Assembly: GCA_020718925.1 (NCBI GenBank) | Contig: DYRC01000003.1 | Coordinates: 1-40,246 of the forward strand | Length of the DNA stretch: 40,246 bases | Reading direction: 5' to 3' | Source of the DNA: Desulfonema limicola | Lineage (GTDB): Bacteria > Desulfobacterota > Desulfobacteria > Desulfobacterales > DYRC01 | In this document: positions 2,319 to 17,420 of the stretch, piece by piece | How the letters are laid out: each line of letters starts with the position of its first letter | Numbering within the stretch: position 1 is the first letter of the stretch | Program-made: the position numbers and the translations under genes | Notes under the pieces: model-generated | What the model was told of the DNA's origin: nothing | What the model saw: only the letters and a program-made list of their open reading frames with translations | Databases searched by the model: none

Positions 2319-4058
2319 TCAGCTTGCCAATCTTGTTGTCCTCTCACAGAGCCTGAACACGCTCACCTTTTCCACCAATTCCTCGGCAATCCGGGCGTGG
2401 CTGTTGTTCAGGAGTGCCATCTCGCTGACCGCTTTGCTGATCTGATCGATCCCGGCTGCCTGCTCGCCGGTCGCGGCTGCAATGGCATTCATAAGAGAGC
2501 GGATATGACTGCTGCCTGTCGTGATACGGGTGAATATGTCATCAATCTCGGCAATCAGCATCAGCCCGTGATCCAGCCGGTCCATTATATCGGTTATCAG
2601 AATGGTCGTATTTTTAACGGCTTCTGCGGAGCGATGTGCCAGATTTTTCACTTCAGCCGCAACCACCGAGAATCCCGCGCCGGATTCTCCTGCTCTTGCC
2701 GCTTCGATTGCCGCATTCAGTGAGAGCATATTGATCTGAAATGCAATATCATCAATGACTTTGACGATTTTCCGCATTGCCTGCCCCGACTCGCCGATGC
2801 TTTTCATGGAATCTGTCAACTGCATCATAGAACGGTTATGCAGGATAGATTGCTTTGCTTTCTCAATCATCGTATCTGATGATGCGACAAGATTATCCGC
2901 CTTTGCCGCGTTTTCCGCATTGTTTTTTGCCATCGCATCTATCTGGTTCAGCGAAGCGGAGGTTTCCTCAATATTGGTCGCCTGACGGATTACGCCGTCT
3001 GCCAGCGTATGTGATTTTCCGATAATTCCCCCGATCATCTGATGCAGGCTTGCAATCATGCGGTTCTGAACCTCAGCCAGTTCGCCGATTTCATCTTTCC
3101 GATTCATCTTCAGGGTTTGGGTCAGATCGCCGTTTGCGATACAGTGTGAGCATTCGCAAAGCTGCCTCAGATTGCGGGAAATGCGTTTGGAAAAAACAAC
3201 CGCAGATACGGATGCGAAAAACCCGAGAATGCTGCCCATAATCAGAGATATACTGATGATTTCGCTGTGAAGTCTGCGAACATCATTTTTGTCTGTAAAG
3301 TACAGCAGCATCAGATTCCGATTTTCCGGGTCTTCTGTGAACGGTCTGATGATCAGAATACCGTCCTGCTGACCGACTGAGTAATGATCCGAGTAATAAG
3401 AAAGATCGTGCAGGCGAATATCCTCTGCTTTGAGCATTTCCTGTGATTCAGCAAGAATATTAACAGCATTGTTCTTTTTATCAAGAATCGCAATCACAGC
3501 ATTTTTGCCGGAGATACGTTTCAAAAATTTCGCATCAATGTTTTTCTTCAGTACCAGTGTACCGATAAATGCGCTATCTTTGATGACAGGCGCGTACAGA
3601 ACAATTCTCAACTGATGGTCTTCTGTTATAATCCTTTGAAAAATTTCCTGATTTTTCCATTTTTCTTTTGCAATGAAAAGTTGTTTTTCAGCGCTCTGAG
3701 TTTCCGTGCTTGCAATTAATTGATAATTTTTATCATAAAACTCAATAATATCCGAATTGACAATCTTTTGCTGCAACAGGAGTTTTTTGTGCAGCGGCTC
3801 GGTTTCTTTGGTGAACCATGCAATTTTGATCAAATCAGATAAATTCGGATCCGATACGACAAAATGAGTATATTTGCGATACTGCTCGATAACAAACCTG
3901 AAATCTGCAACGATTTTATCAATATCCTGCAATATTCTTTCATTTTTATCAGATACGAGAACCTTTTCCGACTGAACGGAAAATACGCATACCATTGACA
4001 AAATCGCTGCGATGGACAATCCGGCAGCAAACACAGCCAGTTTTGTTCCGATTTTCAT
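2319..4058 (-). CDS. Methyl-accepting chemotaxis protein: two TM helices, a ~250-aa periplasmic sensor domain, a HAMP domain and an MA signalling domain.
   Basis: Conserved MCP hairpin region (IAFQINMLSLNAAIEAARAGESGAGFSVVAAEVKNLA). A HAMP-like segment follows the second TM helix. The track start at 4076 is GTG, so I prefer the ATG at 4058 (MKIGTKL). Confidence 0.9.
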   Translation of the reverse strand: MKIGTKLAVFAAGLSIAAILSMVCVFSVQSEKVLVSDKNERILQDIDKIVADFRFVIEQYRKYTHFVVSDPNLSDLIKIAWFTKETEPLHKKLLLQQKIVNSDIIEFYDKNYQLIASTETQSAEKQLFIAKEKWKNQEIFQRIITEDHQLRIVLYAPVIKDSAFIGTLVLKKNIDAKFLKRISGKNAVIAILDKKNNAVNILAESQEMLKAEDIRLHDLSYYSDHYSVGQQDGILIIRPFTEDPENRNLMLLYFTDKNDVRRLHSEIISISLIMGSILGFFASVSAVVFSKRISRNLRQLCECSHCIANGDLTQTLKMNRKDEIGELAEVQNRMIASLHQMIGGIIGKSHTLADGVIRQATNIEETSASLNQIDAMAKNNAENAAKADNLVASSDTMIEKAKQSILHNRSMMQLTDSMKSIGESGQAMRKIVKVIDDIAFQINMLSLNAAIEAARAGESGAGFSVVAAEVKNLAHRSAEAVKNTTILITDIMDRLDHGLMLIAEIDDIFTRITTGSSHIRSLMNAIAAATGEQAAGIDQISKAVSEMALLNNSHARIAEELVEKVSVFRLCERTTRLAS

Positions 4059-4076
4059 CCGAAAACCCTTTTCCAC

Positions 4077-5243
4077 CTAAAACTCAATAGCAATCTGTGC
4101 GGTCAGCACATCTGCTTTATCATCATTTTCAAATTCATCATGGCGATATTCCAGTGCAACAGATGTTTTATCGAATATATTTACGCTGACAACACCCATG
4201 TAGCGGCTTTCGGGAAAGAACTCCTCTGCATGATCCGATCCCTGATATGCCAAGCCGAATGTGGTCTCTTTGCCAAACATCTCGGCGGTATAGCCGATTT
4301 CAGCATTCCATGTGCTTGTTTTTTCCCCTGTAAAAACAGGTCCGATTCCCATTGCTTCCAATGCGCCCGGTAACAACTCCGACATATTCCATTCCGGTTC
4401 CTCAAGCATGGTGATATATTCTCCGATCAGCGTCAACTGTCCGAATTTGATGACAGCATAAGCACCGAGACCGGGTATGTAGTCCCGAAAAGAAAACGCA
4501 AGTCCCATACTTTCGGCATGGCTCTTTTCTTCTTCAAGAACATCTCCCCAGCCGTTTGAATCAATCAGGCTGTTGATGTATCCCAGCCCGATATCCATGC
4601 TGAAACCCTCTTTTCCCATCGTATAGCCCGCAGCAACACCGAAGTTGTCCGCATGATTATCGCCGCCGTCTTTATTCACATCTCCGTTGAACATATATGC
4701 CGCAGCATAAAACCCTTCTGATTTGAAACCGATTTCAACAGCCGATTCCCGTGTTTCACCCAATTCCAGCGTCAGCGGATCGGAAATCATATTGGATTTG
4801 AAATTGCCGAAAGGCACATACAGCTTTCCTGCCTTGAGATAAAGCGGCATGACATCCGCACCATCCAGCAGAATAAAGCCTTTATCCAGAACAACATCTT
4901 CATCGTCTTCGTATAAAAAGAGCAGACTTCCTTTGACATGCTTGGCAATATCAATATCAATGCCCACCTCCACTTTTGATAAAGCCAGATCACTGGTATT
5001 GTTGTCCTCCGCGTAGGGATCGGCAAAATTCATTTTTTCATAGCTTCCTTCTGCTTCGATAACGCCGCTGAAACTGATACGCTCTGCCCATTTGCCCGGA
5101 AGCGCTTTATCTTTCAACTGCTCCTCAATCTGCTTAACCCGTTCACTCAGATCACCACTCGGTGTTTCCTCGGCATACGCCGTGAATACAAGCGAAAACA
5201 CGCATACCACCAGACACAATACTGCCCTGTTCACTTTTTTCAT
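4077..5243 (-). CDS. Putative outer-membrane beta-barrel porin.
   Basis: Signal peptide (MKKVNRAVLCLVVCVFSLVFTAYA), alternating-hydrophobicity strands rich in G/Y/D, and a C-terminal ...IAIEF ending in Phe. An RBS aaaaggaga precedes the ATG. Confidence 0.6.
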   Translation of the reverse strand: MKKVNRAVLCLVVCVFSLVFTAYAEETPSGDLSERVKQIEEQLKDKALPGKWAERISFSGVIEAEGSYEKMNFADPYAEDNNTSDLALSKVEVGIDIDIAKHVKGSLLFLYEDDEDVVLDKGFILLDGADVMPLYLKAGKLYVPFGNFKSNMISDPLTLELGETRESAVEIGFKSEGFYAAAYMFNGDVNKDGGDNHADNFGVAAGYTMGKEGFSMDIGLGYINSLIDSNGWGDVLEEEKSHAESMGLAFSFRDYIPGLGAYAVIKFGQLTLIGEYITMLEEPEWNMSELLPGALEAMGIGPVFTGEKTSTWNAEIGYTAEMFGKETTFGLAYQGSDHAEEFFPESRYMGVVSVNIFDKTSVALEYRHDEFENDDKADVLTAQIAIEF

Positions 5244-5281
5244 TGACTTGTTCTCCTTTTTTATAAAAAATTATTTTCATC

Positions 5282-6169
5282 CTAAAATCCCTGCTGAAGC
5301 CAATCCATCGCAAGCCCTTTTTCAATCAGTTCTCTGCCATGAGGGCTTTTCATAAACGCAAGATATTTCTGTGCTGCTTCCGAAGATGCTGCCCGACTGA
5401 CCAAAGAAATATTTGCAAGAAACGGATATGTGCCATTTTTTTCAACTGCCCGTGTCGGAAAGATACCGCCGATTTTCAGAACTTTGCTCTTATCGTTGAG
5501 AAAAAAGCGCGGCGCCATAGTGATTGCCATTTCCAAGTCCGCAATTTTCTCAAACTGATTATCCGTAATTTCAACAGACATCACGGCGTGTTTCAGTCGT
5601 TCCCGATTCTTGGCAATTCCGGCTTTTTTGATGGCTTGCTCAATCAGATCATCGTAATTTGCGCCGCATTCCTGCCGATAAATGATGATATTTCTGTCTT
5701 TTCCGCCGACTTCTTTCCAATTTCCGATCTGACCTGCAAAAATCTTCAACACCTGTTCAACAGTAAGTTCGTTCACCGGATTGTTTTTGTTCACGATCAC
5801 GGAATAAGCCAGCGAATCCAATCGGGTTTCCACGATTCCGGCTGCCTGTTCCTCGGCAGTCAGCGGTCTGTGCAGCGTTCCGATGTCTGCTTTTCCCAGA
5901 CGAACCGTTTCAACGCCTTTGTGAACACCGGAGCAATCGTTGTTCATGGAAAACGCATAACTCGTCTCTTTTTTGTAAGGATTGGAAAATGTTTTCTGCT
6001 CCTCATGCCCGACCACCACGAACGGAAAAATACACCGCGATGTAACATTGACTGTTAATTCAGGCAGTTTAGGATTATCGGCAAATACTACCTGTGGAAA
6101 TCCCATCACTCCTGCCGCAGCCGCGCTCAGTTTTAAAAAATGCCGTCTGGTGCAAGACCTGCAATTCAT
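5282..6169 (-). CDS. Tat-exported periplasmic substrate-binding protein, PstS/PBP_like_2 (phosphate-binding) family.
   Basis: Twin-arginine signal (CTRRHFLKLSAAAAGVMG). PstS-family motif LTVEQVLKIFAGQIGNWKEVGG. Confidence 0.7.
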   Translation of the reverse strand: MNCRSCTRRHFLKLSAAAAGVMGFPQVVFADNPKLPELTVNVTSRCIFPFVVVGHEEQKTFSNPYKKETSYAFSMNNDCSGVHKGVETVRLGKADIGTLHRPLTAEEQAAGIVETRLDSLAYSVIVNKNNPVNELTVEQVLKIFAGQIGNWKEVGGKDRNIIIYRQECGANYDDLIEQAIKKAGIAKNRERLKHAVMSVEITDNQFEKIADLEMAITMAPRFFLNDKSKVLKIGGIFPTRAVEKNGTYPFLANISLVSRAASSEAAQKYLAFMKSPHGRELIEKGLAMDWLQQGF

Positions 6170-6247
6170 ATTTACCTCTTTTATGTTCGGGCTTCCGGCA
6201 AAACCCGGATCGGATTTCTGTCGGAAGCCTTAATAAACCAATTATAA

Positions 6248-6424
6248 TTACTCCGGTTTCTGATACGCATTGTAATGCCAGATGGAAAATCCGACCAGAG
6301 CGATGCCTGCCCATGTATGAATCTGCCGATTCGGACATCTTTTTCCCGCGCCGGTGAATACGAGCGCGGCAAGAGAAAATGTCATTCCGGCTTTTGCAAG
6401 GAATCTGATGTCGGAGCTTTTCAT
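6248..6424 (-). CDS. Small (58 aa) two-TM membrane protein, the last gene of the iron operon.
   Basis: Internal ATG at 6424 with RBS gaggaataat. It starts 1 nt after the upstream stop. Sequence: MKSSDIRFLAKAGMTFSLAALVFTGAGKRCPNRQIHTWAGIALVGFSIWHYNAYQKPE. The 94-aa track ORF upstream of this ATG overlaps the preceding gene. Confidence 0.5.
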   Translation of the reverse strand: MKSSDIRFLAKAGMTFSLAALVFTGAGKRCPNRQIHTWAGIALVGFSIWHYNAYQKPE

Positions 6425-6425
6425 A

Positions 6426-6767
6426 TTATTCCTCAGCCTCTGCTTTCTGACGCACTTCAGCCTGAACATCCTCGAATTTTTCTTTGAGTTCGTTCGCGCC
6501 GCTCTGCACCATATCATACAGCTTGATAGCACCTTTCATCACCGCTTTCTGAACCCCTTCATTGGTAACAAAAATCGCGGCGATAGCGCCCAGCGCAATG
6601 CCTTTCCAGAACTGCTGGCTGTGATAAAAAACAGCCGGATCATCATAAGCATTCTGGTAATATGCAGGATACATTCCTGATTGAGAAGAATGTCCTGCGG
6701 GTGTGCTGCATCCGCCATGCCCCGGATGACCCGAATGACCGGAACGATATTCACTGTAATCAGACAT
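6426..6767 (-). CDS. His/Gly-rich small membrane-associated protein with an amphipathic acidic C-terminal helix.
   Basis: N-terminus SGHSGHPGHGGC. Hydrophobic motif FWKGIALGAIAAIFV, shared with the C-terminus of the 7135..7704 product. Strong RBS ggaggag. It overlaps the upstream gene by 8 nt. Confidence 0.65.
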   Translation of the reverse strand: MSDYSEYRSGHSGHPGHGGCSTPAGHSSQSGMYPAYYQNAYDDPAVFYHSQQFWKGIALGAIAAIFVTNEGVQKAVMKGAIKLYDMVQSGANELKEKFEDVQAEVRQKAEAEE

Positions 6768-7116
6768 TTTCTGACTCCTCCTTTTTCGATACGCTTTTCA
6801 CTTTTTCAGAACCCGATTTTCCGACTGAATTGAGCAGATAAACCACAGAACTGGCAGCCGCAGCCATTACGACCACAGACATAAAACCGCCGCTGATTGT
6901 GGAAGCGGCAGCAGCTCCGACAGCCGTTGCCACGCCTGCTCCCGCGCCTTTTGCAAGACTGTTGCTGAGAGCCTGCTCCATTGTCATTTCATTGCTGCGG
7001 ACTTTGTGAAGATTCATGCCCAATGCTGCCGAACCTCCTACAACTGTTCCGAGAATTCCCGCGTTGAGAACATATTTCGGATTATACGATGATGACGGAG
7101 TGCTATATACTCGCAT
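6760..7116 (-). CDS. MamC/Mms13-like two-TM Gly/Ala-rich membrane protein.
   Basis: GILGTVVGGSAALGMN...(loop)...KGAGAGVATAVGAAAAS...GG resembles my recollection of magnetosome MamC (GILGGIVGGAAALAKN...KEAAGAGLATAFSAVAA...GGG). ATG at 7116 with RBS gaaggga; the track start at 7131 is TTG. Confidence 0.6.
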   Translation of the reverse strand: MRVYSTPSSSYNPKYVLNAGILGTVVGGSAALGMNLHKVRSNEMTMEQALSNSLAKGAGAGVATAVGAAAASTISGGFMSVVVMAAAASSVVYLLNSVGKSGSEKVKSVSKKEESENV

Positions 7117-7134
7117 AAATTTTCCCTTCAATTA

Positions 7135-7704
7135 CTAAGATTTGAACGCTTTGGTCAGTATCAGCGCACCCACCGCGCCCAATGCAATGCCTGTCCAGAA
7201 TCGGGTGTTTTGGCAGTCAATCCCGAAAAAGCTGCTGACAGTATTCATATCCGCCGCAGTTACGCCGCCGGTCATAAATCGCCCCATCATTTCCGATACA
7301 TGACCGGGACCATATTGCTGCTGATCTCCGCACGAGCAATGACTCTGCCCCTGCTTCGGATGACCGCCTTTCATGCCTGAATGAGACGATTGATTCGGAT
7401 AATATCCGCCTTGCTGAAAATTCTGCTGCATATCCGAGTATGGCGGCTGCTGATTCGCATATCCGCCCGAAGGTCCCATATTCATCTGCTGACTCTGATG
7501 ACTGGAGCCGGAGCATTTATGAGAGCTTTGCGGCGGCTGATTCGGGTATCCGCCCGGATGTCCCATATTCATCTGACCCTGATGACCACTTGCCGCGCCC
7601 TTCTGTTCGCCTGATGCGGCATCGCCCTGATTGTTCTGAAACGCTGCTTCCTGCGCCATAGCCTGTCCGCCTTTTTCAGAATGACTGCATGTTTCCTGTT
7701 CCAT
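7135..7704 (-). CDS. Gln/His/Gly/Pro-rich repeat protein with Cys/His clusters and a C-terminal membrane anchor.
   Basis: Repeats GHQGQMNMGHPGGYPNQPPQ and SHQSQQMNMGPSGGYANQQPP. HKCSGSSH and SHCSCGD clusters. C-terminal RFWTGIALGAVGALILTKAF. RBS aaaggag. Confidence 0.65.
   Translation of the reverse strand: MEQETCSHSEKGGQAMAQEAAFQNNQGDAASGEQKGAASGHQGQMNMGHPGGYPNQPPQSSHKCSGSSHQSQQMNMGPSGGYANQQPPYSDMQQNFQQGGYYPNQSSHSGMKGGHPKQGQSHCSCGDQQQYGPGHVSEMMGRFMTGGVTAADMNTVSSFFGIDCQNTRFWTGIALGAVGALILTKAFKS
7442..7587. repeat. Intragenic tandem DNA repeat: two ~58-60-bp units about 90 bp apart that encode the Q/H/G-rich peptide repeats.
   Basis: 7442-7501 ggcggctgctgattcgcatatccgcccgaaggtcccatattcatctgctgactctgatgac versus 7530-7587 gcggcggctgattcgggtatccgcccggatgtcccatattcatctgaccctgatgacc. 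Confidence 0.7.
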
Positions 7705-7728
7705 AATTCCGAATTTCTCCTTTTTGAT

Positions 7729-9936
7729 TTAAACCGACTTTTCGCCTTTTTTTGCCAATTCTTCCATATCTGTCTGATAAAAAAGCAATTTTGCAGAATT
7801 GCCCACCACGCCTACGGTAATCAGATTGTGAAACAACGCGCCAGCCATCGGTGAAAGCCATCCGAAAGCAGCCAGCACAATGCCTGCCAGATTCAATCCG
7901 ATAGAAATGGCATAATTCTGCTGAATCCCGGACAAAGTTCTCTGTCCCAAATCCGCACACCGGACAACCAAAGCCAGATCGCCTTGTCTGATCACAACAT
8001 CCGCATGTTCGATTGCCGCATCCGCGCCGGTGTCTCCCATTGCAACACTCAAATCCGCATGAGAAAACGCAGGCGTATCATTGATGCCGTCTCCGACCAT
8101 GCCCACAACAGTATCGGGATATTTTTCCTTCCATGAAGCAATCCATGCTGCCTTGTCTTCGGGAGATTGCTGCCAAAGCACCATGTCAATCGGCAGGTCT
8201 TTGGCAATATTGACCGCATGACGCTCATGGTCTCCGGTAATCATTGCCAGATGCTTCACATTCAAGCCTTTGAGCGCGTACAGCACTTCTTTGGCTTTTT
8301 CCTTCAGACGGTCTTCGATGCCGATCAGCCCGATCAGACGGCGGTTGAATGCCACAAACAGCACGCTTTCGCCTTTGTTGAGAATCCGCTCTTCTTCGTC
8401 ATGCCCCATTTCATGGTCAACTTCGTAATCTTCCATAAAATGATGACTGCCTACCAGAACCTCATCCCCGTTGATTTTTGCCCTGACGCCATGCCCGATA
8501 ATAAGTTCGGTTTCCTCGTGTCTTGGAATTTCGATTTCGATTTCCCGAACCTTTTCAAGCACTGCCAGCGTCATGGGATGTTTCCAATGAATCTGAGAAC
8601 TTGCTGCCAATTGCAGAATGCGGATCGGTTCGAATTGAGGATCCAGCGTAACAATTCTCGACACTCTGGGAATGCCTTTGGTCAGTGTGCCGGTTTTGTC
8701 GAAAAACAGCGTATCCATACGCCCGGCAATTTCCAGATAGCACCCGCCTTTGATCAGTATTCCCTGCCGAGCCGCATTGCCCATTGCTGCCATGATTGCC
8801 GTAGGTGTTGACAGCGCAACCCCGCAGGGACACGCGATAATCAGCATGGACAAGGCTCTGGAGATGCTTCGGGTAAGGAAAAATACTGCCATCGAAAGAC
8901 ACAGGGAAATCGGCACCACCGCATCGCTGAATTTTTCAGCAGACAACTGCACTTTGGAGATTGCGCCGTCTCCGTTTTCAATCAGGCGGATAATTGCCGC
9001 AAGCCGGGTATCTTCGCCCACAGAATCCGCTCTCACGAAAACATGCCCCATTTCCACAGTTGTTCCGGCAAATACTTTGTCGCCTTCGGTTTTGAACGCT
9101 GGCAAAGATTCGCCGGTCAGCGTGGCTTCGTTCATCAGGCAGTCTCCGCGAATGACCGTGCCGTCTGCCGGAACAGAACTGCCCATTCTCAGACTCAGAA
9201 TATCGCCTCTGACCAATTCCGATACCCGGACGGAAACTTCCACTTCATCCCTGAGTATCCACACTTCGCGGTTTTCCTGCTTCAGCATAGCACGCACGGC
9301 TTTGCGGGTTCTTTCCTGTGTTCTGTTTTCGATCCATGCGGAAAAATTGATCAGCCATACCACGACCATTGCGGTGATCGGCTCTCCCATGACAATGGAC
9401 AGATAGGACGCGCTGACAATCAGCAAGTCCATGTTCACACGCCGATCCCTGAACAGACTTTCCAGCCCGTCTTTGAGAATCGGAATGCTTAAAGCTATTG
9501 ACAATATGGCAGGAACATTGAAAATTCTGCCGATTCCCGAAAATATCCCGGAGCTTTTGTGAAAAAAGAAGCGATGTATCCACAGCCCCAGCATGTATAT
9601 CCCGGAAATTGCCAATATCGGACCCGGAACATGGGATTCTTTGCCCGAATAAGACGGACAGGATTTTTCTTTGACAGCACAAGCCCTGTTTTCCGAACCG
9701 CAGATATGCGGAAAATCTTTTTCCAGCATTGCCCGGACAGATTCCAATCCGAAATCCGCTTCATGCAGAAGAACCACCGAGCCGGTATTCAGCCGGATTT
9801 CCGCAGAAGAAATTCCGGGAATATGCACCAGTGCGTCCGATACCTGCTGTGCCAGCGATTTTTTCTGCTTCAGAGCAAGAAGTCGGATTCTGCTCCGCCG
9901 GGGCAGACGATGTTCAATATGAAACTGTTTTTTCAT
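7729..9936 (-). CDS. Heavy-metal P1B-type ATPase, paralogue 1, with a non-canonical metal-site signature.
   Basis: DKTGTLT, TGDH, GDGINDTPAF and a TM4 ACPC motif. The N-terminal HMA-like domain has no CxxC (HRLPRRSRIRL). Cys-rich linker CGSENRACAVKEKSC. TM6 reads LFHNLITVGVVGNS rather than MxxSS (Cu) or DxG (Zn). Confidence 0.9.
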   Translation of the reverse strand: MKKQFHIEHRLPRRSRIRLLALKQKKSLAQQVSDALVHIPGISSAEIRLNTGSVVLLHEADFGLESVRAMLEKDFPHICGSENRACAVKEKSCPSYSGKESHVPGPILAISGIYMLGLWIHRFFFHKSSGIFSGIGRIFNVPAILSIALSIPILKDGLESLFRDRRVNMDLLIVSASYLSIVMGEPITAMVVVWLINFSAWIENRTQERTRKAVRAMLKQENREVWILRDEVEVSVRVSELVRGDILSLRMGSSVPADGTVIRGDCLMNEATLTGESLPAFKTEGDKVFAGTTVEMGHVFVRADSVGEDTRLAAIIRLIENGDGAISKVQLSAEKFSDAVVPISLCLSMAVFFLTRSISRALSMLIIACPCGVALSTPTAIMAAMGNAARQGILIKGGCYLEIAGRMDTLFFDKTGTLTKGIPRVSRIVTLDPQFEPIRILQLAASSQIHWKHPMTLAVLEKVREIEIEIPRHEETELIIGHGVRAKINGDEVLVGSHHFMEDYEVDHEMGHDEEERILNKGESVLFVAFNRRLIGLIGIEDRLKEKAKEVLYALKGLNVKHLAMITGDHERHAVNIAKDLPIDMVLWQQSPEDKAAWIASWKEKYPDTVVGMVGDGINDTPAFSHADLSVAMGDTGADAAIEHADVVIRQGDLALVVRCADLGQRTLSGIQQNYAISIGLNLAGIVLAAFGWLSPMAGALFHNLITVGVVGNSAKLLFYQTDMEELAKKGEKSV

Positions 9937-12137
9937 GCTGTTTTTCCATTATCTCCTTTCCAAGTCAGCAGACGACTCGAATTTGCCAAAATTCCCAAAG
10001 TATGGACAATATGCAGCATACCGCCCATCAGAGGACTGAGCAGCCCCATTGCACCGAAAACCATGCCGAAAATATTGGTGGAGGTGGCAAGCCAGTAATT
10101 CTGGTCAATGACTCTGAGCGTCTGACGGCTCAACTGTCTGAGTGTGAGCAGCCGTTTCAGATCACTGTCTGTCAGGGCGATGTCTGCGGCTTCGATGGCA
10201 ACATCCGCACCGCCCGCGCCCATTGCAATTCCGACACTTGCTCTGGACAATGCCAATGCGTCATTCACGCCGTCTCCCACCATGACCACCCGGCATCCGC
10301 TGCTTTCCAGCATTTCCAGATGATACGCTTTGTCTTCCGGCAAAAGTTCTGCTTTGTAATCATCAAATCCCAGACTTTCAGCCAGATGCTTTGCCACAGG
10401 CTCGGTATCTCCGGTAATCAGATGCAGATTTTTCACCCCGTCTTTTCTGAGATATTCAAGCACACTCAGGGCATGAGGGCGAAGCGTGTTACCGACAGCG
10501 ATCAGTCCGTGAAGTGTCTGATTTTCCGCCACATAAATCAGAGTCTGCCCCATTGCCACACGCTTTTCCGCTTCTTCGGCAAAAAAGGAAATGTCAATTC
10601 CGCCCTGATTCATAAACCTGCTGTTTCCCACCATGATTTTATTGCCGTTCACCTGCGCGGTTACGCCCAATCCCAGCACAAATTCGCAGGTTACATGAGA
10701 CCTTGGCAGGATGCCCCGAATCTCCGCTTCTTTCATCACAGCTTTTGCCAAAGGATGTTCGTTATGGATTTCGGCAATCGCCGCCAGTTCCAGAACATCG
10801 TTTTCGGTTTTATCCGCTAAGAATGAAATAATTTCAGATATCTGCGGAACATCAATGGTCAGGGTTCCGGTTTTGTCAAAGCAGAAACTATCGGCTTTTC
10901 CGACCATTTCCAGATACAGCCCGCCTTTGATGAGAATATGGTTTTTGGCAGCATTGGCAATTGCCGCGCTGATTGCCGTAGAAGCCGCAAGCACGGTCGC
11001 GCACGGACATGCCATGACCAGCATGACCGTAAATGCCCGGAACGGATTAAGCGTAATCAGCAGCGTGCCGACAGTTGCAGATATGCCGATTTTGAACAGA
11101 CGTTCAGCCAGAATATCCGCCTGCTGCTCGACCGGAGCGCGGTTTTCCAAAGAATCTTCAACCAATTGCAGAATGCGGCATAAGTATGTGTCATCTCCGA
11201 CTTTTTCAGCGTGGATGAAAATAACGCCTTTCTGAACAATGGTTCCGGCAAACACAATATCGTTTTCCCCGCGCGTCTCCGCTTCCGCGCGACCCGTGAT
11301 ATGCGATTCGTCAATAATCGCCTGACCTCTGACAATCGTGCCGTCAACCGGAATTTTTTCGCCGGTATGAATCACCACCGTATCTCCGGGGTTGAGTTCA
11401 TCCGCACAGATGCGGACTTCTATGCCGTTGACAAAAATGTAGGTATCTTTTTCCGCAATCTGAAGAATCTCGCGGATGGCTTTGCGCGATTGTTCTGCCA
11501 CATAATCCTCCAGCAGCATTCCGACCCGAAGAATCCAGATCACTTCAAGCGCGGTCATGGCTTCTCCCATTGCAATGCCGAGCAGAATGGAGCAAGCAAG
11601 AAAGGGAAACAGGCTTTTGTGCCTTCCGTGGCGCAGGTCGGCGATAGCATGTCGGAACAAGGGAATGGACGCAATCAGACTGACCAGAGATGTCAGGCTG
11701 AAAATGCCCTGTGCCGCAGGAGATTTGGAAATCACCCGCCGGATAATGACATAGCCCACAAACAGGGTCAGTGCGATAATGCCGAGCAGCGAGTCGAACA
11801 AAGACTGCTTTTTCCGCTTTGTTTTTTCAGACGGATCACACTTTACGCAACTCATGGCGCACACCGAAGGCATCCGGGAAGATCGCGCCTGTTTCGGATG
11901 AATCTCCAATGCCTGTATCAGCAGTTCCCTGAGTTGTTCGGGCTTGATCTCCTTGTGTTTGTAGCACACAATCACGCTTCCCGAATGCGCCCGGACTTCA
12001 ATTTTGGTGATGCCGTTTTTCTGAGCCAGCCATTTTTCCAATGAGACTGCCCGCTCATACGCATGGAGAATCTCATTGACATTGAATCGCAGCCGCCCCG
12101 AAATAGCATGTCGGATTGTAATTCGGCTTTTTTTCAT
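9933..12137 (-). CDS. Heavy-metal P1B-type ATPase, paralogue 2, with a non-canonical metal-site signature.
   Basis: DKTGTLT, TGDT, GDGVNDALAL and a TM4 ACPC motif. N-terminal HMA2-like ISGRLRFNV without a loop-1 CxxC. Linker CAMSCVKC. TM6 reads MLHIVHTLGILANS. ATGA overlap with the downstream paralogue. Confidence 0.9.
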   Translation of the reverse strand: MKKSRITIRHAISGRLRFNVNEILHAYERAVSLEKWLAQKNGITKIEVRAHSGSVIVCYKHKEIKPEQLRELLIQALEIHPKQARSSRMPSVCAMSCVKCDPSEKTKRKKQSLFDSLLGIIALTLFVGYVIIRRVISKSPAAQGIFSLTSLVSLIASIPLFRHAIADLRHGRHKSLFPFLACSILLGIAMGEAMTALEVIWILRVGMLLEDYVAEQSRKAIREILQIAEKDTYIFVNGIEVRICADELNPGDTVVIHTGEKIPVDGTIVRGQAIIDESHITGRAEAETRGENDIVFAGTIVQKGVIFIHAEKVGDDTYLCRILQLVEDSLENRAPVEQQADILAERLFKIGISATVGTLLITLNPFRAFTVMLVMACPCATVLAASTAISAAIANAAKNHILIKGGLYLEMVGKADSFCFDKTGTLTIDVPQISEIISFLADKTENDVLELAAIAEIHNEHPLAKAVMKEAEIRGILPRSHVTCEFVLGLGVTAQVNGNKIMVGNSRFMNQGGIDISFFAEEAEKRVAMGQTLIYVAENQTLHGLIAVGNTLRPHALSVLEYLRKDGVKNLHLITGDTEPVAKHLAESLGFDDYKAELLPEDKAYHLEMLESSGCRVVMVGDGVNDALALSRASVGIAMGAGGADVAIEAADIALTDSDLKRLLTLRQLSRQTLRVIDQNYWLATSTNIFGMVFGAMGLLSPLMGGMLHIVHTLGILANSSRLLTWKGDNGKTA

Positions 12138-12292
12138 TCTGCTTTTCCATTCTTAGTCAATATGCAGTTACATGATGAACACCCGCATCCGCCGCCGCAT
12201 CTTTCGGGATTTTTTGCTGTTTTCCGAACCGTATTGGCAAGATAGAGAACAGCCATACTGATAATGAGAAAAATGACTATGTTTTCAAACAT
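12134..12292 (-). CDS. FeoB-associated Cys-rich small membrane protein (52 aa).
   Basis: MFENIVIFLIISMAVLYLANTVRKTAKNPERCGGGCGCSSCNCILTKNGKAE: one TM helix plus a CGGGCGCSSCNC tail. RBS aaggag. It starts 17 nt after the feoB stop, and its stop overlaps the ATPase start (ATGA). Confidence 0.75.
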   Translation of the reverse strand: MFENIVIFLIISMAVLYLANTVRKTAKNPERCGGGCGCSSCNCILTKNGKAE

Positions 12293-12309
12293 TTTTTCAT
12301 CTCCTTTGC

Positions 12310-14448
12310 TTATAAAATCAGCGATCCGATCTGAAATACCAGCACCGCCAGCGTAAATGCCAGCAAAGTATTGAATATCATTGAAAACGCTCCCCATTTC
12401 CACGATCCGGCTTCTCTGGCAATACACACCACCGTTACAAAGCAGGGCGCGTAAAACATGATGAAAATAATCAGACTGAGCGCGGTCAGAGGAGACCATC
12501 CGGGAGATTTGGTAAGCATTTCTCCCAAAGAATCACTGGCTTCGGGATCAACATTTCCCATCGAATATGCCGTACCCAGTGTGGAAACCACGACTTCTTT
12601 TGCCGCAAAGCCGCCCACCAGCGCGATATTGGTGCGCCAGTCAAACCCTGCAAGCCATGAAATGCTTTCCAATGCGGTTCCTATTCTTCCGGCTATCGAA
12701 TATTTCAGCCCTGCTTCAGCCTGAGCAGCATCAATCGCAGTAAGCTTATCTTTGTCAGATTGCGCCACAGTATTGCGCTGCTGATCGAATTTCTCCGCTT
12801 CCGAATCCGGCAGTCCGGGGAATGTCATCATGCCCCATAAAACCACGGAAACCGCGAGAATCACCGTGCCTGCTTTTCTGATATACTGCCACGTTCTTTC
12901 ATAAGTATGAGTGGCAAGACCTTTGAGCGTTGGAAGCCGGTACGGCGGAAGTTCCATAACAAAGGGCGATGCTTCTCCTTTGATGACAGTCATCCGCAGA
13001 AGTTTTGCCACCAGCAGCGCGCCGCCCCATGAAATCAGCGTCAGGGCAAACATAAGCAGTCCTTTGTGATTCGGAAAAAATGCGGCAATCAGAAGGGCAA
13101 ATACCGGCAATTTCGCGCCGCAGTTCATAAACGGAGCGGTCAGAAGTGTTGCCAACTGCTCACGCGGTGATTTCAGAGTCCGGGCTGCCATAACGCCGGG
13201 AACCGCGCACCCTCCGGCAATGCCGCCGGATACGATAAATGCCATCACCGAACTGCCGTGCAGCCCGAACATGCCGAATACTTTATCAAGCATGAAAGCA
13301 ACCCGTGCCAGATAGCCGGAATCTTCAAGTGCGGCAATGCCCAGAAACATAAGCATAATCAGCGGCACAAAACTCAGAACTCCGCCCAGTCCGTCAATAA
13401 TGCCGGATATGATCAGAGATTTCAAAAGTCCGTCAGGCAGAGTTTCGGATGCCAGTCCGTTCAGCCATGCGAAAAAAGCATCCAGCCATTTCACAGGTAT
13501 TTCGCTGAATGTGAAAATGAACTGATACAGCCCGAAAAGTATCAGCAGCATTATCACGGGTCCTGCGATTCGGTGCGTCAGAACTTTGTCAATTTTATCC
13601 GATGCGTAAAGCCGGTTTTTATCGTATTTTTCCTTCAGCACGCCCTGTTTGAGAACCGAGCGGATATAGCCATAACGATAATCGGCAATCAGAGCTTCGG
13701 GATAAGTATCTGATGTGTACTGCAAATGCTCTGACACTCTTTCGACAATGCGTTCAAGTTTTGCAGACAAAACCGCATTTCTGCCCCGCCCCTTTGCCAA
13801 AAGCTGCTCGTCTTTTTCCATATATTTAAGGGCAATCCAGCGCGAAGGATAAATGTCTGTCAGAAAATTACCGGCACAGATTTCTTTTTCCATTTCGAGA
13901 ATCGCGCTGTCTATATCCTGTCCGTAAGAAATCACAAGAGGCTGCTTTTTCTCTTTTTTATCGGCAAAAGCGGCAGCAGTATCCATCAGTTCCTGTTTGC
14001 CGTATCCGGTTCTGGCGATAATCGGAACCACCGGAACGCCTAATGATTTTGAAAGCCTTTCCGCATTGATTTCTATGCCCCGATCTTTTGCCAAATCCAT
14101 CATGTTCAGGGCAATACAGACCGGGACGCCGAGTTCGAGCATCTGAATGGTCAGATACAGATTGCGTTCCAAATTGGAAGCATCCGCAATATTGATAGTT
14201 ACGTCCGGCGATTCATTGACCAGAAAATCTCTGGCAACCACTTCTTCCATCGAATACGCGGTCAGAGAATAGGTTCCGGGAAGATCGGTAATCCGCATCT
14301 TGTAACCGTTATACACACACCTGCCTTCTTTTTTTTCTACGGTAACTCCCGGATAATTGCCAACATGCTGACGCGCACCGGTCAGTTCGTTGAACAGCGT
14401 GGTTTTGCCGCAGTTGGGATTTCCGCCCAGTGCAATGGTCGTTTCCAT
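12310..14448 (-). CDS. feoB: Ferrous iron transporter FeoB (N-terminal G domain plus polytopic membrane domain).
   Basis: G1 motif GNPNCGKTTLFN, then DLPGTYSL and NMMD, followed by the gate/core membrane domain. 712 aa. Confidence 0.95.
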   Translation of the reverse strand: METTIALGGNPNCGKTTLFNELTGARQHVGNYPGVTVEKKEGRCVYNGYKMRITDLPGTYSLTAYSMEEVVARDFLVNESPDVTINIADASNLERNLYLTIQMLELGVPVCIALNMMDLAKDRGIEINAERLSKSLGVPVVPIIARTGYGKQELMDTAAAFADKKEKKQPLVISYGQDIDSAILEMEKEICAGNFLTDIYPSRWIALKYMEKDEQLLAKGRGRNAVLSAKLERIVERVSEHLQYTSDTYPEALIADYRYGYIRSVLKQGVLKEKYDKNRLYASDKIDKVLTHRIAGPVIMLLILFGLYQFIFTFSEIPVKWLDAFFAWLNGLASETLPDGLLKSLIISGIIDGLGGVLSFVPLIMLMFLGIAALEDSGYLARVAFMLDKVFGMFGLHGSSVMAFIVSGGIAGGCAVPGVMAARTLKSPREQLATLLTAPFMNCGAKLPVFALLIAAFFPNHKGLLMFALTLISWGGALLVAKLLRMTVIKGEASPFVMELPPYRLPTLKGLATHTYERTWQYIRKAGTVILAVSVVLWGMMTFPGLPDSEAEKFDQQRNTVAQSDKDKLTAIDAAQAEAGLKYSIAGRIGTALESISWLAGFDWRTNIALVGGFAAKEVVVSTLGTAYSMGNVDPEASDSLGEMLTKSPGWSPLTALSLIIFIMFYAPCFVTVVCIAREAGSWKWGAFSMIFNTLLAFTLAVLVFQIGSLIL

Positions 14449-14450
14449 AG

Positions 14451-14684
14451 TTACTGCACCTCCACCTCAATATAATCTGCCTCTTTGTTTCTTAAAGTCA
14501 GTATGAATCCTTTGATTCTCAGCGCAACCGGATCATATAGCGGCGCGCGTCCCTGAACTTTGATTTCCGTGCCGGGTACAAGCCCCATATCCCGGATCCG
14601 CCTGCCCAATTCTCCGGCAGCTTTCACAGAAGTAACGATTCCTGCCTGATTGTCCTGCATCTGTCGCATGATTAAACGAGCCAT
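14451..14684 (-). CDS. feoA: FeoA family protein.
   Basis: SH3-like FeoA pattern (RRIRDMGLVPGTEIKV...APLYDPVALRIKGFILTLRNKEADYIEV). It lies directly upstream of feoB with a 2-nt gap. Confidence 0.85.
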   Translation of the reverse strand: MARLIMRQMQDNQAGIVTSVKAAGELGRRIRDMGLVPGTEIKVQGRAPLYDPVALRIKGFILTLRNKEADYIEVEVQ

Positions 14685-15688
14685 TATGATAAGCCTCCTG
14701 ATTCAGACAGTTTTTTCTTGGCAGAATATGGGCAGTTTTTGCAATTCCCGCTGCAATGATGTTTTTTGGCTTCAGGCGCAACAATCACCTTGCTTCCGTT
14801 GGGCGCGATGTCAAATCCTTTTTTTCCTTTGAAAAAGATACGATCTGCGGGCAGCAGGTTGAAATTCAGTCCGCACCGGAACGTATTACACCCGAAAGAG
14901 CAGAGATGATGCAGATGATTTGTGTCAATAAACACTCTTCCCCTGCCGTCATATTTATTATGAATAAAATTAAGCAGTTCATAAGCGGAACTCCCGTCAA
15001 AATCCCCTCTGGGCTTCAGATGAAGATCACCGTTGCTGTTTCTTGATTCGATCTGAAAATCTGCACTCATGTTTTTTCCTCCGATCACTGAAAATAACGT
15101 TTGAATTTTGTCCCTATCAGCAGATAAGGCATGAACAATGTCGGGATCGAACTGCGTCCCGGAATTTATGATAATTTCATCAACAGCCGCATCAAATGTT
15201 TTTGGCAGCCGATATGAACGACAGCCTGTCATGGCAGACAAACTATCTGCTACGGCAATGATTCTTGCGCCGAGCGGAATCGCCCTGCCTTTCAATCCGT
15301 GCGGATATCCCTGTCCGTCATAACGTTCATGGTGATAAAGCACCATCTCGCAGATACCGGCTGCCTCAATTTCCCGAACCGGACCAAGAATCGCTGCTCC
15401 GATCTGCGGATGTCTGCGTACAGCCTGCCATTCGGCATCATTCAATTTGCCTTGTTTGTTCAGAATACAATCCGGCACGCCGATTTTTCCGATGTCGTGA
15501 AGATGTCCGGCAATATGAATAATATCCGCATGATTTGTTTCCAAGCCGAGCGATAATGCTAAAATGCGGGATATTTCGGCAACTTCCAGCGAATGCTTTT
15601 CCGTGTAAGCATCTTTGGCATCAACGGCATTGCCCAGAGATTCGGCAAACTGATGAATCGCTGTCATGGATTTCGGTACGGACTTCAT
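14684..15688 (-). CDS. HD-GYP domain protein (putative c-di-GMP phosphodiesterase) fused to a STAS-like C-terminal domain and a Cys-rich tail.
   Basis: HSLEVAE...HLHDIGKIGVPD...HHERYDGQGYPHGL. The C-terminal ~130 aa follow a STAS-like pattern (LHLKPRGDFDGSSAYELL...VFIDTNHLHHLCSFG). Tail HHCSGNCKNCP. Its stop shares 1 nt with the feoA ATG (TAATG). Confidence 0.8.
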   Translation of the reverse strand: MKSVPKSMTAIHQFAESLGNAVDAKDAYTEKHSLEVAEISRILALSLGLETNHADIIHIAGHLHDIGKIGVPDCILNKQGKLNDAEWQAVRRHPQIGAAILGPVREIEAAGICEMVLYHHERYDGQGYPHGLKGRAIPLGARIIAVADSLSAMTGCRSYRLPKTFDAAVDEIIINSGTQFDPDIVHALSADRDKIQTLFSVIGGKNMSADFQIESRNSNGDLHLKPRGDFDGSSAYELLNFIHNKYDGRGRVFIDTNHLHHLCSFGCNTFRCGLNFNLLPADRIFFKGKKGFDIAPNGSKVIVAPEAKKHHCSGNCKNCPYSAKKKLSESGGLS

Positions 15689-16941
15689 AGCTCCCTTACC
15701 GCGCCGGAAGTTGCTGCGATATTCGGTCTCTGAATCCCCTGAAATATCGCATTCAAGCCTGAGCCTGAAAGCATCTGAACCGGCTTATGGTGTTTTTTGC
15801 CCAGTTGTTTGACCAGTGTACATGCCGCATGACTGTTGCAGTTGACCGGACACAGCACGATGTCTGCCCGCCTGAGACTGCATTCAAGCTTGCCCACGCC
15901 TCCTTTGACATGCCCGTCATGGTATTCAAAGATTCCGCCGCTGCGCTCAACTACCTGACGATACAGCGATTCCATCCTGCTGATGCCGCCGACAATCAAT
16001 ACCCGCTTTCTGCACAAATCAAAGGACGGACAGCTTTGATTACAGCCATTTATTCCGCAGGACTGCATCATCATATCGTGAATTTCTTTCTGAAAATTCG
16101 ATTCCGATTCGCTCTTCCTCAGCAAATCAGTGGTTAATCGCTGATTTTCCGCTTCAAGCTTGACAATCTGCTTTGCAAACAATACGGCTTTTTCGGAAAT
16201 CCTTGTCTGATCCGCCTTTAATTTCCGGTTTTCCTTTTTCAACTCTTCAAATTCTGCATGAAGTTTCCGATCTTTTGCTGCCTCAAGCTCGGTCTCAAGC
16301 AGGATTTTCTGTTTTTCCGAAATATCCAGACGAAGTTTCAGTTCATTCGCTGCATTTTGCAGAGATTCGACTTCTTTTTGCAGAATTTTGCGATGCCTGT
16401 TTTCTTCATCTGCTTTCTCCGCAGCTTTGCGGCTTTGTTCCTGCATCAGATCGGTGCGTCTGAGCATATCCGCCCGCTCTTCGCTGTTTCTGTGCATGGA
16501 CATGTGAATATCCCCGAACACTTCCCGGCGGAATTCTTTTGACAGATTGCGGCGGGAGGCAAGATACCAGAATATTCCGATATATTCTCCGGCTTTGAAA
16601 CAGATCTGCCACTGCGCTGCCAATTCTGCTTCTGTCATGGCTGCAAATAATTCCGATTCGCGGGAAAATTTACGGACAAGCAGGCTGTCAATTTTCCGGG
16701 ATAAACGATTTTCACTTTTTGAACTGGCAACCAGAATTTCGTGCATCTCGAAAAGACTTGTTTTTTTCAAAGAAAGCCCTGATTTTTTAAGTAGTTGCTT
16801 TTGTTCGGATACGCTAAGACATATCCCTGCTATCGGGCATGAGAAAAAATCATCTGTCTCCCAAAACTTCAAACGGGCGGAGTGATCGCTCTGTGCCGTA
16901 ATTTCAGTGAAATCCGGCAGCATTTTGCCTGAATTTTGCAT
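15685..16941 (-). CDS. DUF2325-domain protein with a long central coiled coil.
   Basis: N-terminal ETDDFFSCPIAGICLS motif. About 130 aa of heptad-rich K/E/L sequence. C-terminal DUF2325-like VLIVGG...ADIVLCPVNCNSHAAC. RBS aaaggagg. 4-nt overlap with the next gene. Confidence 0.7.
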   Translation of the reverse strand: MQNSGKMLPDFTEITAQSDHSARLKFWETDDFFSCPIAGICLSVSEQKQLLKKSGLSLKKTSLFEMHEILVASSKSENRLSRKIDSLLVRKFSRESELFAAMTEAELAAQWQICFKAGEYIGIFWYLASRRNLSKEFRREVFGDIHMSMHRNSEERADMLRRTDLMQEQSRKAAEKADEENRHRKILQKEVESLQNAANELKLRLDISEKQKILLETELEAAKDRKLHAEFEELKKENRKLKADQTRISEKAVLFAKQIVKLEAENQRLTTDLLRKSESESNFQKEIHDMMMQSCGINGCNQSCPSFDLCRKRVLIVGGISRMESLYRQVVERSGGIFEYHDGHVKGGVGKLECSLRRADIVLCPVNCNSHAACTLVKQLGKKHHKPVQMLSGSGLNAIFQGIQRPNIAATSGAVREL

Positions 16942-16955
16942 GAATACCTCCTTTC

Positions 16956-17007: not shown

Positions 17008-17066
17008 CACTTTTTCCGCGCTGATTCAGCCGGAAACCGTAAGACATCCCAAACTATTCAATAAAT

Positions 17067-17354: not shown

Positions 17355-17420
17355 ATTAATCTCTCCTATTAATATTTGATATATCTAACTTTTAAAACAA
17401 AAAAAATATAATTTATGTGT

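Follow-up and report, generated by a model that had tools for sequence, protein, structure and literature searches.

Gene content and organization of the locus

The window analysed here is the whole 40,246-nt stretch spanning positions 1 to 40,246 of Desulfonema limicola contig DYRC01000003.1 (GCA_020718925.1), and the analysis concerns a quartet of tightly packed minus-strand genes at 6248–7704 encoding small membrane proteins of 189, 118, 113 and 58 amino acids (aa). The quartet lies directly downstream of feoA-feoB and two genes for P1B-type ATPases of 735 aa each, and we consider it highly probable that the four proteins form the accessory membrane-protein module of a fez-type (ferrosome-like) cluster for an iron-storage organelle. 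Ferrosomes, in which bacteria store iron, were discovered only recently, and their small membrane proteins are barely understood. All four open reading frames (ORFs) of a preliminary description of this DNA are present, on the minus strand, and the peptides quoted there were all recovered (HKCSGSSH, SHCSCGD, SGHSGHPGHGGC and two near-repeats in the 189-aa protein).

The quartet genes abut or overlap one another in an operon-like arrangement, and the two ATPase ORFs overlap by 4 nt. Each quartet gene has a plausible ribosome-binding site; the 118-aa ORF begins with ATG behind GAAGGGA, and the 58-aa ORF begins with ATG after GAGGA. A scan of positions 4000–18200 for promoters and terminators returned sites no commoner than in shuffled sequence, so the operon assignment draws only on the gene overlaps; the quartet is probably co-transcribed with feoAB and the two P1B-ATPase genes, under iron-responsive control. 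By Pfam and NCBIfam assignment, the quartet is followed downstream by a PstS-like protein with a twin-arginine translocation (TAT) signal, an LbtU-type porin, a chemoreceptor and a Fur-family regulator, and the gene string is preceded upstream by HD-GYP and DUF2325 proteins and a DtxR-family repressor; the remainder of the window encodes housekeeping functions (HtrA, Lon, ClpXP, trigger factor). Neither mam nor mad genes turned up among the larger ORFs of the 40-kb window, in agreement with the preliminary description, which had seen no core mam or mad genes there. Coordinates are collected in Table 1.

Table 1 Features of the window, with the evidence for each assignment
Feature	Position	Strand	Evidence
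Predicted tail-anchored GxxxG protein, 189 aa, FezG/FezE type (Grant Group 2-1 motif)	7135–7704	minus	ORF, repeat, orthologs, motif
Predicted MamC-family membrane protein, 118 aa, FezF / Grant Group 4 type	6760–7116	minus	NCBIfam MamC, hhalign, shuffles, synteny
Predicted GxxxG protein, 113 aa, FezG type	6426–6767	minus	phmmer to fez-cluster YtxH-named proteins, synteny
Predicted two-helix FezC-membrane-domain / DUF4405-like module, 58 aa	6248–6424	minus	phmmer, family profile, invariant His
P1B-type ATPase 2, CPC/HNxxT class, HMA_2 N-terminus	7729–9936	minus	Pfam, NCBIfam, motifs
P1B-type ATPase 1, FezH type, HMA_2 domain	9933–12137	minus	Pfam, NCBIfam, motifs vs Grant Suppl. Table 1
Small Cys-rich membrane ORF, 52 aa from MFENIV...	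12134–12292	minus	ORF translation
feoB, ferrous iron importer	12310–14448	minus	FeoB_N 1e-68, TIGR00437 7.6e-168
feoA	14451–14684	minus	phmmer matches to FeoA genes of related loci
DtxR/IdeR-family metal-dependent repressor	17421–17888	minus	Pfam Fe_dep_repress and Fe_dep_repr_C
HD-GYP-type HD_5 protein	14684–15688	minus	
Coiled-coil protein, 418 aa, C-terminal DUF2325	15685–16941	minus	
Inverted repeat in 78-nt spacer after the 58-aa gene	6170–6247		
TAT-signal PstS-like protein, phosphate-binding fold	5282–6169	minus	
LbtU-family siderophore porin	4077–5243	minus	291 bits
Complete IscB-type OMEGA element	36707–38241	minus	
Split catalase gene	203–1659	minus	

Relationship of the 118-aa protein to MamC

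MamC (Mms13/Mam12), a protein of magnetotactic Alphaproteobacteria and Magnetococcales, exceeds all other membrane proteins of the magnetosome in abundance and is commonly regarded as peculiar to magnetotactic bacteria. In the 118-aa protein, a Gly/Ala-rich first transmembrane helix (TM1, residues ~16–34) is followed by ~20 aa of conserved polar loop (N35...K56) and then by a long hydrophobic stretch that is again rich in Gly and Ala (57–98). The protein matched the NCBIfam MamC model NF038051 with an E-value of 6.7e-11 and 42.4 bits, its residues 16–90 aligning to model positions 9–84 of 97, and the same model matched all of the 23 aligned orthologs (best E 1.8e-14). NF038051 is an equivalog model with a curated cut-off of 100 bits, which lies well above the score of the 118-aa protein and which likely none of its orthologs reaches. 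Two MamC sequences that served as controls scored 135.8 and 146.7 bits on this model.

A profile of the orthologs (A1) was searched against 1.84 billion proteins and found 220 representative clusters at E <= 0.001, among them P0275, a protein of a Magnetococcales genome named magnetosome protein MamC by NCBI (E 6.8e-8). Alignment of A1 with P0275 in hhalign gave a probability of 97.7% and an E-value of 1.9e-12 over 91 columns, and the M. gryphiswaldense MamC sequence among the controls yielded the same alignment; taken overall, the comparisons with MamC gave probabilities of 97.1–97.7% over 70–91 columns and spanned TM1, the loop and the second hydrophobic region with its GAG(V/L)ATA helix. 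Against the ortholog profile, real MamC scored 47.5 bits, whereas the best of 1000 shuffled versions reached 7.2 bits when the whole sequence was shuffled, 19.3 bits with blocks of 10 residues and 30.0 bits with blocks of 5 (1000 trials in each case), so the match is not an effect of Gly/Ala composition. Furthermore, a precomputed match to Pfam PF26373 ‘MamC’ is on record for homologs of up to 96% identity; the Pfam copy that we scanned holds no PF26373 model and left the bona fide MamC P0275 likewise unmatched, so its silence on the 118-aa protein is no evidence against homology.

Judged by these profile comparisons, the 118-aa protein is truly homologous to MamC without being a MamC equivalog. 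The profile search that the preliminary description had named as a check thus returned a significant match, and its reading of a MamC-like protein encoded outside any magnetosome island was borne out. Homology runs from TM1 through the loop into the second hydrophobic region, which is rich in Gly and Ala, at ~37–38% identity to the ortholog consensus (70–91 columns), and the proteins have in common their size class and a signature, N-x3-[VL]-x4-[IM]-T-x3-A-x2-[DN]-[ST]...GAG[VL]ATA. In contrast to MamC, the 118-aa protein scores 42 bits against an equivalog cut-off of 100, was found outside any mam cluster, with the Fez ATPase set as its genomic partner, has Q/N at the loop positions of E66/D70, and ends in a Lys/Ser/Glu-rich tail rather than an acidic one.

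The superfamily shows some of its strongest conservation in the loop (N35, V39, M/I44, T/S45, A49 in 95%, D/N52). In MamC, loop residues Glu66 and Asp70 bind iron/magnetite (PMC6584501). Across the superfamily, the column equivalent to E66 holds E in 47%, Q in 25% and D in 11%, and that equivalent to D70 holds D in 42%, N in 19% and E in 8%. An AlphaFold2 model computed from 23 sequences placed helices at 13–40, 46–73 and 80–114, with a predicted local distance difference test score (pLDDT) of 60.3 and a predicted template modelling score (pTM) of 0.35, and was used for the helix count only.

GxxxG proteins of 189 and 113 aa

The 189-aa and 113-aa proteins share the membrane anchor FW(K/T)GIALGA, which the preliminary description had pointed out and which also appears as a repeat in the DNA (6562–6611 vs 7151–7200, 72% identity over 50 nt). 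We identify this anchor, from its residues, as the published GxxxG motif of fez proteins (Grant Group 2-1, FezG-like; Suppl. Table 4): QFWKGIALGAIAAI of the 113-aa protein and RFWTGIALGAVGAL of the 189-aa protein fit the Group 2-1 motif list, which has such entries as ELLKGIAIGAGMTY, RFVKGLLIGAAAAY and the FezG entry Sputcn32_3194.

The 189-aa protein has a low-complexity N-terminal domain rich in Gly, Gln, Ser, Met and His, with an internal 29-codon repeat whose near-repeats start at residues 40 and 68. The DNA repeat that had been placed at 7442–7587 in this gene is real, and runs from 7431–7488 to a second copy at 7518–7575 (83% identity over 58 nt, in-frame spacing of 87 nt). The conserved sequence HVSEMMGRF...FFGIDCQNTRFWTG then precedes the anchor, one C-terminal transmembrane helix, RFWTGIALGAVGALILTKAF, which is the sole hydrophobic stretch (168–187). 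The chain ends five residues after the helix and, because this is the only one, the protein is predicted to be tail-anchored. Its 165-residue low-complexity domain, which has no signal peptide, is most likely cytoplasmic, and this argues against repeats that face the mineral.

Orthologs of the 189-aa protein were found at four related loci (L006, L011, L012 and L013) with E-values of 1e-32 to 1e-40, close orthologs being confined to the nearest genomes. More distant clusters (L002, L004, L008) encode proteins of 240–324 aa in the same position that have the C-terminal module ...DMVGR...LNF..DQFWKG... in common, and their nearly uncharged N-termini contain 12–23% Gly, 6–15% Pro, 8–22% Gln, 3–10% Met and 1–11% His.

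In the 113-aa family, the low-complexity N-terminus including SGHSGHPGHGGC is poorly conserved, and the transmembrane helix (QFWKGIALGAIAAIFV) and an amphipathic C-terminal tail, TNExVQK...ELKEKFEDxQAE (ELKEKFEDVQAE), are invariant. Searches with phmmer connected the 113-aa protein to counterparts in fez clusters of Arcobacter (2.5e-10), Azospirillum (2.5e-9) and Vibrio (1.6e-7), the first two named ‘YtxH domain-containing’ by NCBI and the third lying in an unannotated stretch. The match to Pfam YtxH (PF12732) amounted to 14.0 bits (E 0.069) against a threshold of 37.5, with 22.2 bits for the Azospirillum counterpart, and the match to Pfam DUF5132 was weak.

Like Mms6, MamD and MamG, these are small single-pass membrane proteins with repetitive low-complexity sequence, encoded beside an iron-organelle protein. 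The window proteins differ in that they have neither Leu-Gly repeats nor an acidic C-terminal iron-binding tail, and in that the low-complexity domain is N-terminal to the tail anchor and probably cytoplasmic; no sequence similarity to the Mms6, MamD or MamG families was detected in Pfam and NCBIfam scans.

A two-histidine module in the 58-aa protein

The 58-aa protein has two hydrophobic helices, the second of which carries H36 and H50 at a distance of 14 residues (HTWAGIALVGFSIWH). Both residues, the candidate heme ligands, are invariant in 23 of 23 family members, and the same spacing recurs in the C-terminal membrane domain of a FezC-like protein of Azospirillum and in a DUF4405-like protein of Arcobacter. 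The latter, a fez-cluster protein, was matched by the 58-aa protein in phmmer (3.1e-8) and by the family profile (3.3e-18), and itself matches DUF4405 at E 6.8e-4. The direct match of the 58-aa protein to Pfam DUF4405 reached 15.4 bits (E 0.027), below the gathering score of 26.7 bits, and no N-terminal domain precedes the helices.

FezC is a heme-b cytochrome with DUF4405-like heme sites formed through homodimerisation, and is proposed to modulate the redox state of ferrosome iron; binding of heme b has been demonstrated for D. indicum FezC and for one DUF4405 protein (PMC11334425). The 58-aa protein is best read as a FezC membrane module lacking the HMA domain, and hence as a candidate dimeric heme-b mini-cytochrome. 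With FezC and DUF4405 proteins it shares the two-helix module and the pair of family-invariant histidines 14 residues apart on helix 2; unlike them, it has no N-terminal HMA/R-rich (arginine-rich) domain, is far shorter than the six-helix DUF4405 proteins and falls below the Pfam threshold. On this point the preliminary description is to be corrected: with its FezC/DUF4405-like two-His module, the 58-aa protein is of another kind.

A short third DNA copy of the anchor is present in the 58-aa gene (6292–6313, 22 nt, 77%), where it encodes WAGIALVG. Shared ancestry of this segment with the GxxxG anchors was set aside as too short at 22 nt, and the resemblance was treated as convergent helix packing.

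The two ATPases and assignment to a fez-type cluster

Definitions of the fez motifs were taken from the preprint of Grant et al. and its supplementary tables. Four features define fez clusters there: FezB, a P1B-6 ATPase with DYSCA[LI]K in TM4, HNxxT in TM6 and an R-rich N-terminal motif; a second ATPase that is often present, FezH, with ACPCATV and HIxHT; small proteins that carry the conserved hydrophobic GxxxG motif; and R-rich/HMA proteins such as FezC (bioRxiv 10.1101/2020.01.10.902569). We applied the definition of FezH as [AS]CPC[AS]T[VIA], H[ILVM]xH[TS] and an R-rich motif (Grant Suppl. Table 1). ATPase 1 of the window conforms to it in TM4 (ACPCATV), TM6 (HIVHT) and its R-rich motif (HAISGRLRF), and carries an HMA_2 domain. 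ATPase 2 combines ACPCGVA in TM4 with HNLIT in TM6, and has an R-rich motif (HRLPRRSRIRL) and an HMA_2 N-terminal domain. The combination CPCG/HNxxT occurs only once in Suppl. Table 1 of Grant et al., in the unclassified Desulfomonile tiedjei protein Desti_4193, which adjoins a FezH, Desti_4191 (bioRxiv 10.1101/2020.01.10.902569). On its motifs, we assign ATPase 2 to a third ATPase class that stands in for canonical FezB.

As a side observation, this class (TM4 ACPCG[VI][AGS], TM6 HN[LM]IT, R-rich HMA_2 N-terminus) replaces FezB in 11 of 22 related genomes and is encoded at loci L002, L006, L008, L010–L015, L022, L023, L025, L026, L028 and L030. ATPase 2 is roughly equally distant from FezB (343 bits) and FezH (~405 bits).

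The likeness of the window to known fez clusters comprises the FezH-type ATPase, R-rich motifs with HMA_2, the Group 2-1 GxxxG proteins (of 113 and 189 aa), a Group 4 (FezF-like) two-helix protein adjoining a FezG-like gene, and the DUF4405/FezC-like module. It extends to iron homeostasis, with feoA and feoB in the same string and DtxR- and Fur-family regulators and an LbtU-type porin nearby. The window differs from known clusters in having the ACPCGVA/HNLIT ATPase in place of a canonical P1B-6 FezB, a first GxxxG protein that is tail-anchored with a long, repeat-bearing low-complexity domain, and a FezC-like module without HMA/R-rich domain. By gene content, the window cluster is thus predicted to be a variant fez type in which a CPC/HNxxT ATPase replaces canonical FezB.

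Co-conservation across Desulfobacterota genomes

Related loci were collected by a genome scan with exact peptide patterns, one genome per species, which gave 22 loci; distant members are missed by such patterns, and the taxonomic range is therefore a lower bound. All 22 loci are from metagenome-assembled genomes (MAGs) of Desulfobacterota (Desulfococcaceae, Desulfamplus, Desulfatiglandales, Desulfomonilaceae, Syntrophales, SEEP-SRB2, Thermodesulfobacteriaceae and others). A 113-like gene follows the MamC-like gene in 22/22 loci and a 58-like gene is next in order in 21/22, and a Fez-type (HMA_2 P1B) ATPase is encoded within 10 kb in 21/22, the exception being a 7-kb contig. The quartet genes are accordingly kept with the ATPases, an expectation on which the preliminary description had staked its reading. 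The ATPase complement varies, with FezH plus the CPCG/HNxIT type in 10 of the 22 loci, FezH plus canonical FezB in seven, FezH only in two, the CPCG/HNxIT type only in one and FezB only in one. In all longer metagenome contigs examined, the MamC-like gene likewise lies beside HMA_2-bearing P1B-ATPases. Other recurrent neighbours of the related loci are DtxR, feoAB, the porin, and the HD-GYP and DUF2325 proteins; a DtxR-family homolog adjoins the related clusters L004, L006 and L011.

These counts bear on the possibility that the locus serves detoxification of heavy metals (Cu/Zn/Cd/Co), with two CPC efflux ATPases and His/Met/Cys-rich membrane proteins acting as chaperones or buffers, and no organelle. 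Such a role would suit the CPC motif in TM4 of both ATPases, whose best NCBIfam subfamilies are generic heavy-metal, Cd and Cu, as well as the Met/His/Cys-rich low-complexity segments of the 189-aa and 113-aa proteins. We nevertheless judge it improbable: the ATPases show the FezH signature and an R-rich HMA_2 N-terminus rather than the CxxC HMA domains of CopA/ZntA, feoAB are in the string with DtxR, Fur and a siderophore-type porin nearby, the same module occurs with canonical FezB in 8 of 22 related loci, and the small proteins are homologous to fez-cluster proteins and have unconserved His/Cys clusters.

MamC-like proteins in fez clusters of other phyla

In Arcobacter, Vibrio and Azospirillum, the gene upstream of the FezG-like gene encodes a protein (117, 101 and 118 aa, respectively) that matches a broad MamC-superfamily profile with E-values of 6e-19, 8.5e-16 and 1.5e-9, and the Arcobacter (9.4e-7) and Vibrio (8.8e-9) proteins also match NCBIfam MamC directly. 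The canonical FezB DYSCA motif in TM4 was read in the Arcobacter and Azospirillum clusters, the two of the three to which motif reading was confined. By gene order and length, the Arcobacter gene is the equivalent of Abu_0713 and so belongs to Grant Group 4, which is spread across fez clusters and includes RPA2335 and Sputcn32_3195, that is, FezF (bioRxiv 10.1101/2020.01.10.902569). The window shows the same arrangement of a two-helix protein encoded beside a Group 2-1 GxxxG gene, the correspondence to FezF/Group 4 being drawn through the Arcobacter, Vibrio and Azospirillum proteins and not through the S. putrefaciens FezF sequence. From profile matches and gene order, we assign the 118-aa protein to the FezF family and take the FezF family to be related to MamC.

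An alternative equation of Group 4 with the DUF4405 group was rejected on the Arcobacter gene order (Abu_0712, 0713, 0715) and on the profile matches to the MamC-like gene; the Arcobacter DUF4405-like gene is elsewhere in the fez cluster, apart from the Group 4 gene. Two natural fusions, one joining MamC-like and FezG-like domains (P0195, 252 aa) and one joining a DUF2202 ferritin-like domain to a MamC-like transmembrane region (P0185, 226 aa), support a functional link between the families. The two superfamily members nearer to true MamC (~50–55 bits to MamC in phmmer) whose gene context was inspected are also encoded in fez clusters, and P0166, among those nearer MamC, scored ~70 bits on the NCBIfam MamC model. 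Of these loci, L039 (1492–13050) holds three MamC-family paralogs.

Full-text searches returned no paper on a link between MamC and Fez proteins, and the Grant preprint is silent on MamC, though its final version (Nature 2022) may differ; the homology of FezF and MamC is visible in database models, and discussion of it was not found in the literature searched.

The distribution of the family also informs two further explanations. According to the first, the 118-aa gene would be a real mamC of a magnetotactic member of the Desulfobacterales, with magnetosome-associated proteins as its neighbours and the remaining magnetosome cluster lying outside the window. NCBI does name some orthologs ‘magnetosome protein MamC’, one close relative is from a MAG of Desulfamplus, a genus that includes a magnetotactic species, and one family member is from a Candidatus Magnetomoraceae genome. 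The score of 42 bits against a cut-off of 100, with true MamC at 136–147 bits, the failure to find mam or mad genes in the 40-kb window, the Fez-type ATPase neighbours without mam cluster in 21/22 loci (the 22nd being a short contig) and in all longer metagenome contigs examined, and the presence of the same superfamily in fez clusters of Arcobacter, Vibrio and Azospirillum together leave this explanation with hardly any probability.

According to the second, the small proteins would be general membrane-stress or remodelling proteins (YtxH-like, Gly-zipper) that stand beside metal pumps by chance and have no dedicated role in iron storage. This would be in keeping with the weakness of the Pfam matches to YtxH, DUF5132 and DUF4405 and with the Gly/Ala-rich helices common in small stress proteins. 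We regard it as very unlikely, given that the order MamC-like, 113-like, 58-like is kept beside Fez ATPases in several Desulfobacterota orders, that the first two genes are also paired in Campylobacterota and in Alpha- and Gammaproteobacteria, and that gene fusions connect the families among themselves and with a ferritin-like domain.

Points against the fez assignment and a possible mechanism

A number of observations count against the assignment of the quartet to a fez-type organelle cluster. No canonical FezB (TM4 DYSCA[LI]K) was found by motif in the 40-kb window; as ferrosomes have been shown to depend on FezB, the window cluster could serve a different organelle or even a different metal. 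A CPC motif, typical of Cu/Zn/Cd pumps, is present in TM4 of both its ATPases. All 22 related genomes are MAGs. In the 118-aa protein, Q48 and N52 occupy the positions at which MamC has its iron-binding E66 and D70, the topology is a predicted one, and confidence in the AlphaFold model is low (pLDDT 60). Finally, the His/Cys clusters are not conserved among orthologs, which keep only the nearly uncharged, Gly/Pro/Gln/Met-rich composition. Specific metal sites in these clusters were accordingly rejected as a conserved feature, and the metal-binding role that the preliminary description had proposed for His/Gln-rich segments found little support, the low-complexity domains being probably cytoplasmic as well. 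The same description had seen in the proteins an analogy to Mms/MamC; its iron-organelle logic and the link to the ATPases stand, and the notion of orphan analogs gives way, since the proteins make up a homologous fez accessory module.

Taking as given the observed homologies, gene order and iron-gene context, we infer roles for the proteins as follows. The FezH-type ATPase and the CPC/HNxxT ATPase, the latter as a stand-in for FezB, would load a cytoplasmic membrane vesicle with Fe(II). The two FezG-like proteins (189 and 113 aa) would insert through their GxxxG helices and self-associate and, with the amphipathic helix of the 113-aa protein, would shape and stabilise the vesicle membrane; their disordered Gly/Pro/Gln/Met(/His)-rich N-termini would lie on the cytoplasmic face and may serve to cluster the organelle or to bind Fe(II) loosely. 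The conserved helical loop of the 118-aa hairpin would face the lumen of the vesicle, as that of MamC faces the lumen of the magnetosome, and would touch iron or the iron-phosphate mineral there. A dimer of the 58-aa protein, as a small heme-b cytochrome, would carry electrons across the organelle membrane and control the redox state of the iron. Each of these roles (ATPase loading, membrane shaping, lumenal loop, electron carriage), taken singly, is tentative, ranging from doubtful to, at best, an evenly balanced possibility.

Neighbouring genes and other elements

An inverted repeat, GGCTTCCG...CGGAAGCC, lies in the 78-nt spacer that follows the 58-aa gene. Its loop is ~23 nt long, a T-run is lacking and the terminator scan missed it; it may be the end of the fez transcript or a regulatory hairpin ahead of the PstS-like gene. 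That gene is directly downstream of the quartet and, within the related loci, was seen in the window only; a phosphate-binding-fold neighbour is suggestive, given that iron phosphate is the mineral of ferrosomes. The siderophore porin recurs beside L006, L008, L011 and L013.

The small Cys-rich product encoded between feoB and the FezH gene has one hydrophobic helix and a Cys cluster (GGGCGCSSCNC / ERCGGGCGCSSCNC), and its ORF overlaps the start codon of ATPase 1 by 4 nt. Small Cys-rich proteins are often found after feoB, and this product resembles them.

The HD_5 and DUF2325 genes are overlap-coupled to feoA. Their homologs adjoin related clusters L012, L013, L022, L028 and L030, and a DUF2325 gene likewise flanks the Arcobacter plasmid fez cluster (L037); the two proteins may be a regulatory partner of fez clusters.

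Elsewhere in the window, the OMEGA element consists of an IscB ORF (36707–37993, 428 aa) with Pfam RRXRR (4e-72) and HNH domains and, directly upstream, a full-length HEARO/omega RNA (RF02033, 38032–38241; 143.6 bits, E 3.6e-30), and the GC content is down to 0.38 from 38 kb onward. The catalase gene is divided into an ORF for the N-terminal part (1243–1659), which reaches a stop after …NNTPVFF, and a second ORF (203–1183) corresponding to positions 155–382 of Pfam Catalase; the split reflects a frameshift, due to either a pseudogene or an assembly error.

Implications

A homolog of MamC in this setting links two bacterial iron organelles that, in their genetics, are generally regarded as distinct. 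The homology between FezF and MamC, whose loop in the lumen binds iron and acts as a template for magnetite, leads to a concrete and testable proposal for the Fez protein that contacts the mineral, and it suggests a partly common origin of the organelle machineries. We go further only tentatively, and with somewhat less than even confidence, in proposing jointly that MamC is a specialised offshoot of an older, much more widespread ferrosome family (FezF / Group 4 / PF26373), in which case ferrosomes and magnetosomes would have part of their mineral-facing membrane toolkit in common, and that the Desulfobacterota cluster type builds an undescribed ferrosome variant without FezB. MamC is a standard anchor for the display of proteins on magnetosomes, and its ferrosome relatives may serve likewise as display anchors in organelle engineering. 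The four genes form a conserved module that is movable as a unit into model ferrosome formers, and the locus points to fez-like clusters in sulfate-reducing Desulfobacterota that work without canonical FezB.

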